Shown one piece after another: positions 1,744-3,523 of a stretch of DNA of 34,472 bases (positions are counted from its first letter, which is position 1; each line of letters begins with the position of its first letter). Made by a program: the position numbers and the translations under genes. Below the pieces are notes generated by a model. It ran no database searches and had not been told where the DNA came from. It was given only the letters and a program-made list of their open reading frames with translations. Origin of the DNA: a virus. Location: UHGV virus genome UHGV-0176895; one strand, 5' to 3'.

Positions 1744-1768
1744 AAAAAAGCCCTCATATCAGAGGGCT
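1744..1768 (-). terminator. Rho-independent terminator-like hairpin (stem 1749..1755 / 1762..1768, 6-nt loop) plus U-run, abutting the int start codon
   Basis: On the minus strand: AGCCCTC-TGATAT-GAGGGCT then UUUUU then AUG of int. A second hairpin lies at 1791..1811 (AGCAATCA / TGATTGCT), 16 nt after the cargo gene stop. Confidence 0.5.
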
Positions 1769-1826
1769 AAATTTAACTGTATATACAACCAGCAATCAAT
1801 GTGTGATTGCTATGAAACATACATTG

Positions 1827-3503
1827 CTAAGCAACATGTAGTTCATCGTTGGCGGAAGTGGCTGCTTTGCGTTCCTGATCAATAGATAGTGACTCTCTAT
1901 ATTCTTTCGCCTCTGCAAACATTGTCCAGTGGGCATTGATGTTCATATCTTCAATAACCGATTTAATTTCTTTAATATTTACGTTAAAAAACTCTTTTCG
2001 TGAGTTAATTTTATTGACCTGCTTTTCGTTGAAGACTTTATGCAGATGATTTTCTAATGACGGTGCATCATCACTATAAATCATCGCATGAACATCGAAC
2101 GAAAAAGGAACACTAGCATCCCCAAGTTCACGAACACGATCAAGTGGTTCAAGGCGGCGTGTCATTCCAATTTTATATACATCTTCGCCAAATGAGCCAA
2201 TATTGCTAATTATATAAACATGGCCTGATCTAGTTTGTTGAGCCATAGAAATAGCTCGTTGGTTTTTAGCTTCAGCTTCTTCATATTTTAACTGTAGTTC
2301 AGCTATTTTTTGCTCTAAAGCTAAGCGTTGTTCTTCATTTGCAAGCATAAGCTCTTTCGTTGCTTTATTTATAGCTTGCTGAATAGCTTTCTCTTCTTTT
2401 TCGGCTTCTTTTATCGCTTTTTCATACTCTCTACGAGCTCTTTCCTCTTCACGAAGCTGTTCTTTAATCCTTCTTTGCTCCTCTTTTTCTTCGAGCATAA
2501 TTTCATTAACTGCAACTCCCCATTTTAGCTCGTTGAGTCGTGCCTGAAGATAGATGTCACTTATTTTTGCGGATCTAAAAGCAGAGCCATTATAATTTAC
2601 AAGTTGAAATGCATCTTTTATTTCTTGGGAAAGTTTTCCAAAATTGTTGTGTTTGACTTTTGATAAAATACTGTCAACTCTTCCATTGAAGGCATCCAAA
2701 ACAAAGTTGATAGCAGTATTACGCCTGTTTTGCTCAACATAATCACACGAAGCTGCTTTATTAGTTTTTATTAATGATTTTGTTAACTCCCTGGCTTTTT
2801 GTAATTCCTTGCCTGCATCTGTAAACTCATAATTTTCTGCCAATTCATCAAGTACACTACGGTTAGGGATGATCCATTCATCGCCATAACCTTCAATTTT
2901 ATTTTTCATTGATTTGGCAACTGCTTCATATTTTTCTGCAAACTCTTTAGCTTCATATGCTGAACCAGCAATCTCTTTTGCTCTTTCTTCTGCATCGGAA
3001 ATAATTTTTACTGCGTTGTCATTAGCATTTGAGATCAGCTCATTTGCTTTACTGTTGGCATTATCAAGACGTTCTTTGGCTTTCAGGCGTGCATCGCGAG
3101 CGTCTTTGGTGATTGCTATAGCTTCGCTATTAGCGTTGCTTATTGTTATCTGAGCTTGATAACTTGCTTCGTTTACTGTCTTAGCTGCCTTTATTTGGGC
3201 TTCTTCTATTTTTTGCCTAGCTATTGAGTCTGCATTTTTTATCTTATTCTCTGCCTCCATCACTGCGCTGTGCAATTCTTCGTATTGCCATAATGGTGCT
3301 GCTCGCCCTTCAAGCTCTGATAGATCTCGTGCAGTCTGTGCTAACTTTTCTTGATTTTCACTCAGTTGGCTGGAAAGGGCTATGTTGTTAGCCGTCAGGT
3401 TATCTATGGCGGATTTGTGTTCTTTACTTTGCTTAAATAATATTATAGCTAGAACAGGGGCGAGAAATGCTAATAAGAATATAACGATGGAAAATGAATT
3501 CAT
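1827..3503 (-). CDS. Cargo protein, 558 aa: N-terminal transmembrane helix, long A/E/K-rich coiled coil, C-terminal GIY-YIG-like (T5orf172-type) domain
   Basis: ATG at 3503 with AAGGA 5 nt upstream. Hydrophobic segment FSIVIFLLAFLAPVLAIILF near the N-terminus. C-terminus GHVYIISNIGSFGEDVYKIGMTRRLEPLDRVRELGDASVPFSF matches the GIY-(x10-13)-YIG pattern. Hand counts on sample lines give about 35% G+C versus about 60% in the late genes. Confidence 0.8.
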   Translation of the reverse strand: MNSFSIVIFLLAFLAPVLAIILFKQSKEHKSAIDNLTANNIALSSQLSENQEKLAQTARDLSELEGRAAPLWQYEELHSAVMEAENKIKNADSIARQKIEEAQIKAAKTVNEASYQAQITISNANSEAIAITKDARDARLKAKERLDNANSKANELISNANDNAVKIISDAEERAKEIAGSAYEAKEFAEKYEAVAKSMKNKIEGYGDEWIIPNRSVLDELAENYEFTDAGKELQKARELTKSLIKTNKAASCDYVEQNRRNTAINFVLDAFNGRVDSILSKVKHNNFGKLSQEIKDAFQLVNYNGSAFRSAKISDIYLQARLNELKWGVAVNEIMLEEKEEQRRIKEQLREEERARREYEKAIKEAEKEEKAIQQAINKATKELMLANEEQRLALEQKIAELQLKYEEAEAKNQRAISMAQQTRSGHVYIISNIGSFGEDVYKIGMTRRLEPLDRVRELGDASVPFSFDVHAMIYSDDAPSLENHLHKVFNEKQVNKINSRKEFFNVNIKEIKSVIEDMNINAHWTMFAEAKEYRESLSIDQERKAATSANDELHVA

Positions 3504-3523
3504 TTTTAAATCCTTTTACTATA

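Follow-up and report, generated by a model that had tools for sequence, protein, structure and literature searches.

What is a 558-amino-acid open reading frame (ORF) doing between the integrase gene int and the repressor gene cI of a 186-like prophage, at a junction that is empty in phage 186 itself? The question arises in the viral genome UHGV-0176895, a stretch of 34,472 nucleotides (nt) referred to in its entirety as the window. A preliminary description, made from the letters alone, had placed a 558-residue ORF within 1744-3523, on the strand of cI and with its ATG 20 nt past the cI stop, and both coordinates and description proved correct. It had been unable to assign a named defense system; in fact, PADLOC profiles and RefSeq labels match the gene to PD-lambda-1, since renamed SNIPE. 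Judged by its sequence, the 558-residue ORF belongs to this already named and characterized family. Building on architecture, homology, catalytic residues, linkage, and purifying selection, all observed in the DNA, it is proposed that the ORF encodes a membrane-anchored SNIPE-family nuclease which, as prophage cargo expressed in the lysogen, would cut phage DNA at the injection site and thus act in direct defense. The probability of this reading is put at roughly 85%; with it, we infer membrane localization, nuclease activity, timing of cleavage, lysogen expression, and target range. PADLOC and RefSeq annotation already recognize the ORF, and published work covers the system along with its architecture and mechanism. 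The basic mechanism being described already, the finding extends known biology and opens no new field.

PD-lambda-1 was discovered by functional selection as the ECOR26 protein RCP76574.1 (500 residues; DUF4041 at 197-252, T5orf172 at 357-448; Vassallo et al. 2022, PMC9519451), and was later renamed SNIPE and characterized (Saxton et al., bioRxiv 10.1101/2025.11.03.685801; Nature 2026, PMC13190303). A transmembrane (TM) helix at the N-terminus retains SNIPE in the inner membrane, where the protein is located near ManYZ; the association of its N-terminal region with ManYZ was inferred in the authors' model, without N-terminal mutants or swaps (PMC13190303). The DUF4041 domain binds DNA and, as revealed by cross-linking, a siphovirus tape measure protein. 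Defense is lost upon substitution of the catalytic glutamate (E414A), and SNIPE deprived of its TM helix becomes toxic and cuts the chromosome (Saxton et al., PMC13190303). Lambda DNA is cut during injection, not afterwards, and the cells survive; at high multiplicity of infection, SNIPE cells survive and keep growing, unlike those carrying the abortive-infection control PD-lambda-3. A single TM helix, located within the first 70 residues, is found in 59% of SNIPE homologues (Saxton et al., PMC13190303).

Several independent comparisons connect the window protein to this family. The PADLOC PD-Lambda-1 profile PDLC03976 matches residues 130-550 (E=1.1e-119) over positions 51-481 of its 491 (88% of the profile), PADLOC PDLC03977 matches at 1.3e-115, and PHROG 1847 at 2.9e-132. 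In RefSeq, copies of the E. coli locus at 99.7-99.8% DNA identity are named 'DUF4041 domain-containing protein' or, in newer records, 'SNIPE associated domain-containing protein', and PF13250 itself carries the name 'SNIPE' in newer Pfam. For direct alignment, the ECOR26-type reference was WP_074500416.1 (L001), a 500-residue E. coli protein from a lambdoid prophage that has the residues E223, W257, and E414 described by Saxton et al. BLASTP pairs residues 265-555 of the window protein with 196-487 of this reference (49% identity, E=3e-76), and hhalign pairs 265-547 with 196-478 at a probability of 100% and 49-50% identity, the DUF4041 part falling on SNIPE 196-260. E484 of the window protein aligns with the catalytic E414. 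A single-gene PADLOC profile match, a central DUF4041, a C-terminal GIY-YIG domain with the catalytic glutamate, and a single N-terminal TM helix are thus all found in one protein. The family to which it belongs comprises 3,349 clusters at 50% identity with E ≤1e-3, and 1,407 at ≤1e-30.

The gene and the parts of its product are as follows, helices being taken from an AlphaFold2 (AF2) model with its predicted local distance difference test score (pLDDT):

1827..3503, minus strand: SNIPE / PD-lambda-1 family gene, 558 amino acids, ATG start, stop codon included (ORF list)
3438..3494, minus strand: transmembrane helix, residues 4-22 (FSIVIFLLAFLAPVLAIIL), followed by the basic stretch KQSKEHK (hydropathy)
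2904..3437, minus strand: N-terminal helical 'adapter' region, residues 23 to ~200, rich in A, E, K, and N (AF2 helices 3-66 and 72-203)
2514..2903, minus strand: conserved central domain, residues ~201-330, with columns conserved family-wide; includes DUF4041
2538-2705, minus strand: Pfam DUF4041 (now 'SNIPE', PF13250), residues 267-322 (3.1e-12, 46.6 bits against a cut-off of 27)
2229..2513, minus strand: long linker helix rich in E, K, and R, residues 331-425 (AF2 helices 317-387 and 390-424, pLDDT 63-80; aligns to SNIPE 261-355)
1944..2225, minus strand: GIY-YIG nuclease domain of the T5orf172/MUG113 type, residues 427-520 (Pfam)

The single N-terminal TM helix of the preliminary description was recovered by hydropathy: residues 4-22 form the sole 19-residue segment with a mean Kyte-Doolittle value above 1.6 (2.99). 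The three-residue N-terminus and the basic stretch past the helix suggest, by the positive-inside rule, an N-out, C-in topology, in agreement with the topology experimentally shown for SNIPE. The Pfam matches to T5orf172 and DUF4041 that had been predicted were both obtained, the former at 427-520 (5.9e-17) along with MUG113 at 443-520 (1.6e-19). The nuclease motifs are represented by V429-Y430-I431, Y443-K444-I445-G446, R449, R450, E484, and N497. An alignment of 42 diverse family members has 22 invariant residues, among them G427, Y430, K444, G446, R449, R450, E459, H472, E484, and N497, and the window protein has 22/22. Secondary structure in the AF2 model at 428-530 is beta-beta-alpha-beta-alpha, as expected for GIY-YIG, but the pLDDT is 32-58 and the underlying alignment was too shallow. 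Between anchor and nuclease, a coiled coil of about 400 residues had been envisaged. Helical stretches do exist there, but they are not continuous: a globular region at ~200-330, including DUF4041, splits them. The N-terminal helical region has an 11-residue periodicity, detected as a lag-11 peak of self-similarity; this hendecad pattern is located at residues 75-205 (window 2904-3280, minus strand). Relative to the window protein, close homologues carry insertions of exactly 7 residues further upstream, at positions 40 and 53, or lack 33 residues (189-221). The periodicity and the insertions suggest a register-preserving rod of variable length, predicted to span from the membrane to the DUF4041 domain.

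How such a protein would act can be outlined from the studied homologue. Anchored in the membrane, the nuclease would be kept off the host chromosome. When a foreign phage injects its DNA, the central DUF4041 domain would engage the DNA and the machinery of injection, which for the studied homologue means the tape measure protein. In a further step, the C-terminal GIY-YIG domain would cleave the incoming genome, and the infected lysogen would live, a direct defense rather than abortive infection. The membrane-tethered anti-phage nuclease of the preliminary description is exactly what the studied homologue turned out to be (Saxton et al.). Its proposal of an abortive-infection or exclusion effector fared less evenly: the abortive part disagrees with a family that gives direct defense and cell survival, and an exclusion-like block of entry comes closest. 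An abortive-infection effector would be a membrane-tethered nuclease that, released or activated upon infection, degrades the DNA of host and phage alike and kills the cell. Host DNA is attackable in principle, given the toxicity and chromosome cleavage of SNIPE without its TM helix, and other PADLOC candidates containing T5orf172 (PDC-S57) also match the C-terminal domain. However, the studied homologue provides direct defense with survival at high multiplicity of infection, unlike PD-lambda-3, and the window protein keeps its layout of TM helix, DUF4041, and nuclease. Abortive infection is thus highly unlikely.

The window starts with the host gene rcdA (20..586), after which the 186-like prophage begins, and homology to an excised-form phage contig sets in at ~590. 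Around the SNIPE-family gene, the lysogenic region is organized as follows:

691..1743, minus strand: int, tyrosine integrase, 350 amino acids (Pfam Int_N and Phage_integrase); the prophage is integrated beside rcdA (RefSeq context rcdA, then int)
1744..1826, minus strand: int leader, with a 7-bp GC-rich hairpin (1749-1768) and T6 at its end
3504..3523, minus strand: cI-SNIPE spacer, 20 nt, with the Shine-Dalgarno (SD) sequence AAAGGA 7 nt before the ATG
3524..4120, minus strand: cI, 186-type CI repressor, 198 amino acids (Pfam Phage_CI_repr 8.4e-32 and Phage_CI_C 1.5e-27)

Exactly 20 nt separate the cI stop from the ATG of the ORF, whose TAG stop lies 83 nt ahead of the int ATG. On the plus strand follow an apl/cox-sized ORF, cII (CP76), fil, DUF5347, DUF2732, TraR/DksA, Dam, replication endonuclease A, and a DinI/tum-like gene. 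A partner gene for the SNIPE-family ORF is absent, its neighbors being cI and int. The excised-form contig is OM835953.1 (L012, 'Klebsiella phage KP12 clone KP12_3'), which is filed under Vequintavirinae, yet is P2/186-like and 98% identical to window 590-5063. It is circularly permuted and has int beside ogr across attP, and therefore seems to represent a prophage of this type that had been excised and packaged and was assembled together with the KP12 phage preparation.

In 186, cI and int overlap by 1 nt, and in RE2010, Cartapus, and SEN8 a gap of 2-3 nt separates them, so that the junction is empty in all four; the expectation that the gene is not a core function was borne out by its absence there. 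A synthetic empty-site query, composed of the 5′ 400 nt of int joined to the 3′ 400 nt of cI, was searched in 5,426 complete E. coli genomes, and in none of them (0/5,426) does the window cI allele abut int. The window int allele occurs in 1,120 of these genomes; about 168 also have the window cI, always separated from int, and the full SNIPE-family gene is present in 165. In one such E. coli genome (2014C-3061; L002:7925-8521), the linked cI bears the nonsense mutation Q80*, the SNIPE-family gene being intact with 3 substitutions; the window cI is intact. The 558-residue subfamily is also found in Klebsiella, Citrobacter, Salmonella, and Enterobacter. In Klebsiella and Citrobacter the layout is cI (198 residues), 20 nt, the gene (558 residues), 82 nt, and int, only the downstream spacer differing from the 83 nt of the window. 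Amino acid identities to the window are 79-84% for cI, 83-84% for the SNIPE-family gene, and 90-93% for int. Within the Klebsiella orthologue, identity is 57% in the TM helix, 73% in the N-terminal helices, 92% in the DUF4041 region, 93% in the linker, and 90% in the nuclease, the N-terminal part being the most divergent, as in the SNIPE family at large. Against the Klebsiella and Citrobacter orthologues, the proportion of nonsynonymous differences (pN) is ~0.10 and that of synonymous differences (pS) ~0.75, which is saturated. By this measure the gene is real and under strong purifying selection.

The region is AT-rich, with a GC content of 0.33-0.40 compared with 0.45-0.50 in its flanks; by gene, the values are 0.374 for the ORF, 0.395 for cI, 0.482 for int, and 0.524 for the remaining prophage. 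The preliminary description had proposed an AT-rich insert. The gene is indeed an addition relative to 186-type junctions, but it is not a simple insertion behind a 186-type cI: the cI found here is equally AT-rich and diverges together with the gene, and it is the pair of cI and SNIPE-family gene that sets the locus apart from 186. The base-identical layout across genera, the linkage to one cI allele, and the saturated pS with low pN mark cI and the SNIPE-family gene as an old, co-inherited, AT-rich module, and contradict a recent insertion. The same observations bear on another explanation, a selfish GIY-YIG homing endonuclease inserted between cI and int and devoid of any defense role. GIY-YIG and T5orf172 domains are present in phage homing endonucleases, and an AT-rich gene that 186, RE2010, Cartapus, and SEN8 lack would suit such an element. 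In contrast, the genomes searched offer no empty target site, the gene co-diverges with cI to synonymous saturation under strong purifying selection, cI is as AT-rich as the gene, and the protein carries a TM anchor and the SNIPE-diagnostic DUF4041. A homing endonuclease is therefore the least probable of the explanations considered here.

Sibling prophages with the same int at the same rcdA site carry five other contents at this junction:

L008 junction: 63-residue ORF
L009 (E. coli FDAARGOS_433) junction, 4480-5811: KAP-family P-loop NTPase plus 63-residue ORF (PADLOC candidate PDC-S20, 6.9e-171)
L010 junction: ClbS/DfsB and ISEc53
L011 junction: 314-residue unknown ORF with a longer cI
L003 (Klebsiella phage 4LV2017) junction: 349-residue unknown ORF

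The int-cI junction is a variable cargo slot. The unknown ORFs of 314-349 residues are accompanied by a longer cI (292-313 residues). When PADLOC was applied to the remaining cargo, no match was obtained for the 349-residue (4LV2017) and 314-residue ORFs, the 401-residue ORF of RE2010, or orf69 of 186; only the KAP NTPase matched. In the literature searched, neither strict linkage to one cI allele nor variable int-cI cargo is reported for enterobacterial 186-like prophages. On the direct-defense reading, the junction would be a slot of these prophages for defense cargo expressed in the lysogen, occupied here by a widespread SNIPE subfamily tightly linked to one immunity type.

The variability of the slot also bears on the idea that the gene serves the prophage's own biology, be it as a coiled-coil 'chromosome segregation ATPase' or as an accessory factor in lysogeny or excision. 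Phage records in GenBank use the former name, JGI labels homologues 'V-type ATPase subunit H', weak matches of the DivIVA/SMC type exist, and linkage to cI is tight. However, no ATPase domain or motif was found in the protein, most 186-like phages do without the gene (186, RE2010, Cartapus, and SEN8 being those compared), and sibling prophages hold unrelated cargo at the same junction. The segregation ATPase, V-ATPase subunit H, DivIVA, and SMC labels were rejected as artifacts of coiled-coil composition, the SMC/DivIVA matches reaching 15-24 bits against curated cut-offs of 260-729 and reflecting coiled coil only. A role in the prophage's own biology is accordingly exceedingly improbable.

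A separate observation concerns the classic P2 defense hotspot of the window, which has replication endonuclease A / DinI on one side and the portal gene on the other. At 10873-12237 on the plus strand lies a 454-residue ORF whose N-terminal half is coiled coil; two TM helices are predicted in the vicinity of residues 280-335. It belongs to no Pfam family, its PADLOC matches are weak and of the coiled-coil type, and it is present in 1/5,426 complete E. coli genomes, where its annotation reads 'hypothetical'. In a sister prophage that shares the cI-SNIPE module, retron Ec67 takes its place. The 454-residue ORF is a candidate defense gene.

Would a lysogen express the SNIPE-family gene? The lysogenic operon of 186 is annotated pL-cI-int-orf69. 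A scan of the interval from cI to the ORF, which is simple and insensitive as regards promoters, detected nothing resembling a terminator or a promoter. The length of the 20-nt spacer and its SD sequence are conserved in Klebsiella and Citrobacter although flanking synonymous sites are saturated. Given the shared strand, the short spacer with its conserved SD sequence, and the scan, the gene most likely shares a transcript with cI, started at pL- and pE-type promoters like those that drive cI-int in 186. Downstream, the int leader (83-85 nt) is conserved among prophages with five different upstream cargoes and belongs to the int side, not to the cargo. It contains three inverted repeats, the last of which is the 7-bp GC-rich hairpin with T6 that abuts the int ATG, and the int SD sequence (GAGG) lies inside the 3′ arm of this hairpin and is thus sequestered. 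The leader RNA folds at -31.5 kcal/mol (z = -4.07). A search for covariation in the leader yielded one-sided base changes only, so that support for the hairpins is limited to conservation, and an Rfam scan of the whole window returned no match. Attenuation or translational control of int by its leader is possible. More speculatively, the hairpin may limit read-through and attenuate int in lysogens, the cargo still being made.

A number of points weigh against the proposed SNIPE-like defense and are best considered together. In the literature searched, no experiment addresses the window protein or its subfamily, nothing having been published that tests the 558-residue SNIPE subfamily. The AF2 model, built from an alignment of 20 sequences whose identity to the window protein is 81-97% and used for secondary structure alone, was poor (mean pLDDT 52, predicted template modeling score 0.23) and gave no structural confirmation of the fold or of a basic DNA-binding surface of DUF4041. 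A sequence search of the PDB at E up to 1 returned no match, hence no solved relative detectable by sequence. Co-transcription with cI is argued from spacing alone, and expression in the lysogen from layout. PD-Lambda-1 homologues also protect S. thermophilus, yet homologues that are 98.5% identical there include both active and inactive ones; activity of the window protein can therefore not be assumed. Finally, BLASTP and hhalign find no homology between the N-terminal 264 residues of the window protein and the first 195 of ECOR26-type SNIPE, both starting with a TM helix, and neither ManYZ association nor lambda specificity can thus be transferred to the window protein. This mismatch lowers the claim to an ECOR26-like specificity, not family membership, since the authors report the N-terminal region as variable: no other part of the family is conserved so little or varies so much in length, and they propose that it is a specificity adapter (Saxton et al., PMC13190303).

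Compared with ECOR26 SNIPE, the window protein shares the single-gene organization, the order of N-terminal single TM helix, DUF4041, long helix, and C-terminal GIY-YIG domain (T5orf172/MUG113), 49-50% identity in the C-terminal 283-293 residues, the catalytic glutamate (E414 there, E484 here), and carriage by an E. coli prophage. Nevertheless, several differences exist. The window protein is 58 residues longer. W257 is a position that changes specificity, W257R on its own strengthening defense against the Bas14 clade (PMC13190303); its counterpart in the window protein is K327. While the ECOR26-type copy examined lies in a lambdoid prophage between replication and nin genes, the window gene belongs to the lysogenic operon, with cI and int, of a 186-like myovirus prophage. 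With an unrelated N-terminus, K327, and the split in activity among the S. thermophilus homologues, the target range of this variant is unreadable from homology, and the range of phages blocked, along with any host partner, probably differs from that of ECOR26 SNIPE. A subfamily that shares DUF4041 and nuclease and has a different N-terminal half offers a natural way of testing whether, as has been published, specificity is determined by the N-terminus. It is conceivable, if on balance doubtful, that the hendecad N-terminal 264 residues act as an adapter to a membrane partner or injection route other than ManYZ with a different phage range, that coupling to cI creates a two-layer cassette, and that the hairpin insulates int. 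If so, immunity would combine repression of homoimmune phages with nuclease exclusion of heteroimmune ones.

Beyond its own family, the window protein shares predicted action at the inner membrane during genome injection with Zorya, Kiwa, and superinfection exclusion by HK97 gp15, analogues discussed by Saxton et al. (PMC13190303). These are without sequence relationship to it; Zorya and Kiwa each consist of several genes and respond to perturbation of the membrane, and HK97 gp15, unlike SNIPE, blocks injection without a nuclease. For the locus, the closest precedent is the defense hotspot between cI and integrase in P2-related (K139-like) Vibrio prophages (Rousset et al. 2022, PMC9122126), where, too, variable cargo in a temperate phage related to P2 is bracketed by conserved cI and int genes. 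In contrast to the Vibrio hotspot, the one described here belongs to 186-like phages of Enterobacteriaceae, a change of cargo goes along with a change of cI allele such that the exchangeable unit appears to be cI plus cargo, and the int-proximal border is a conserved 85-nt leader with a terminator-like hairpin. The int-cI junction described here is the enterobacterial 186-like equivalent of the hotspot in K139-like Vibrio prophages.

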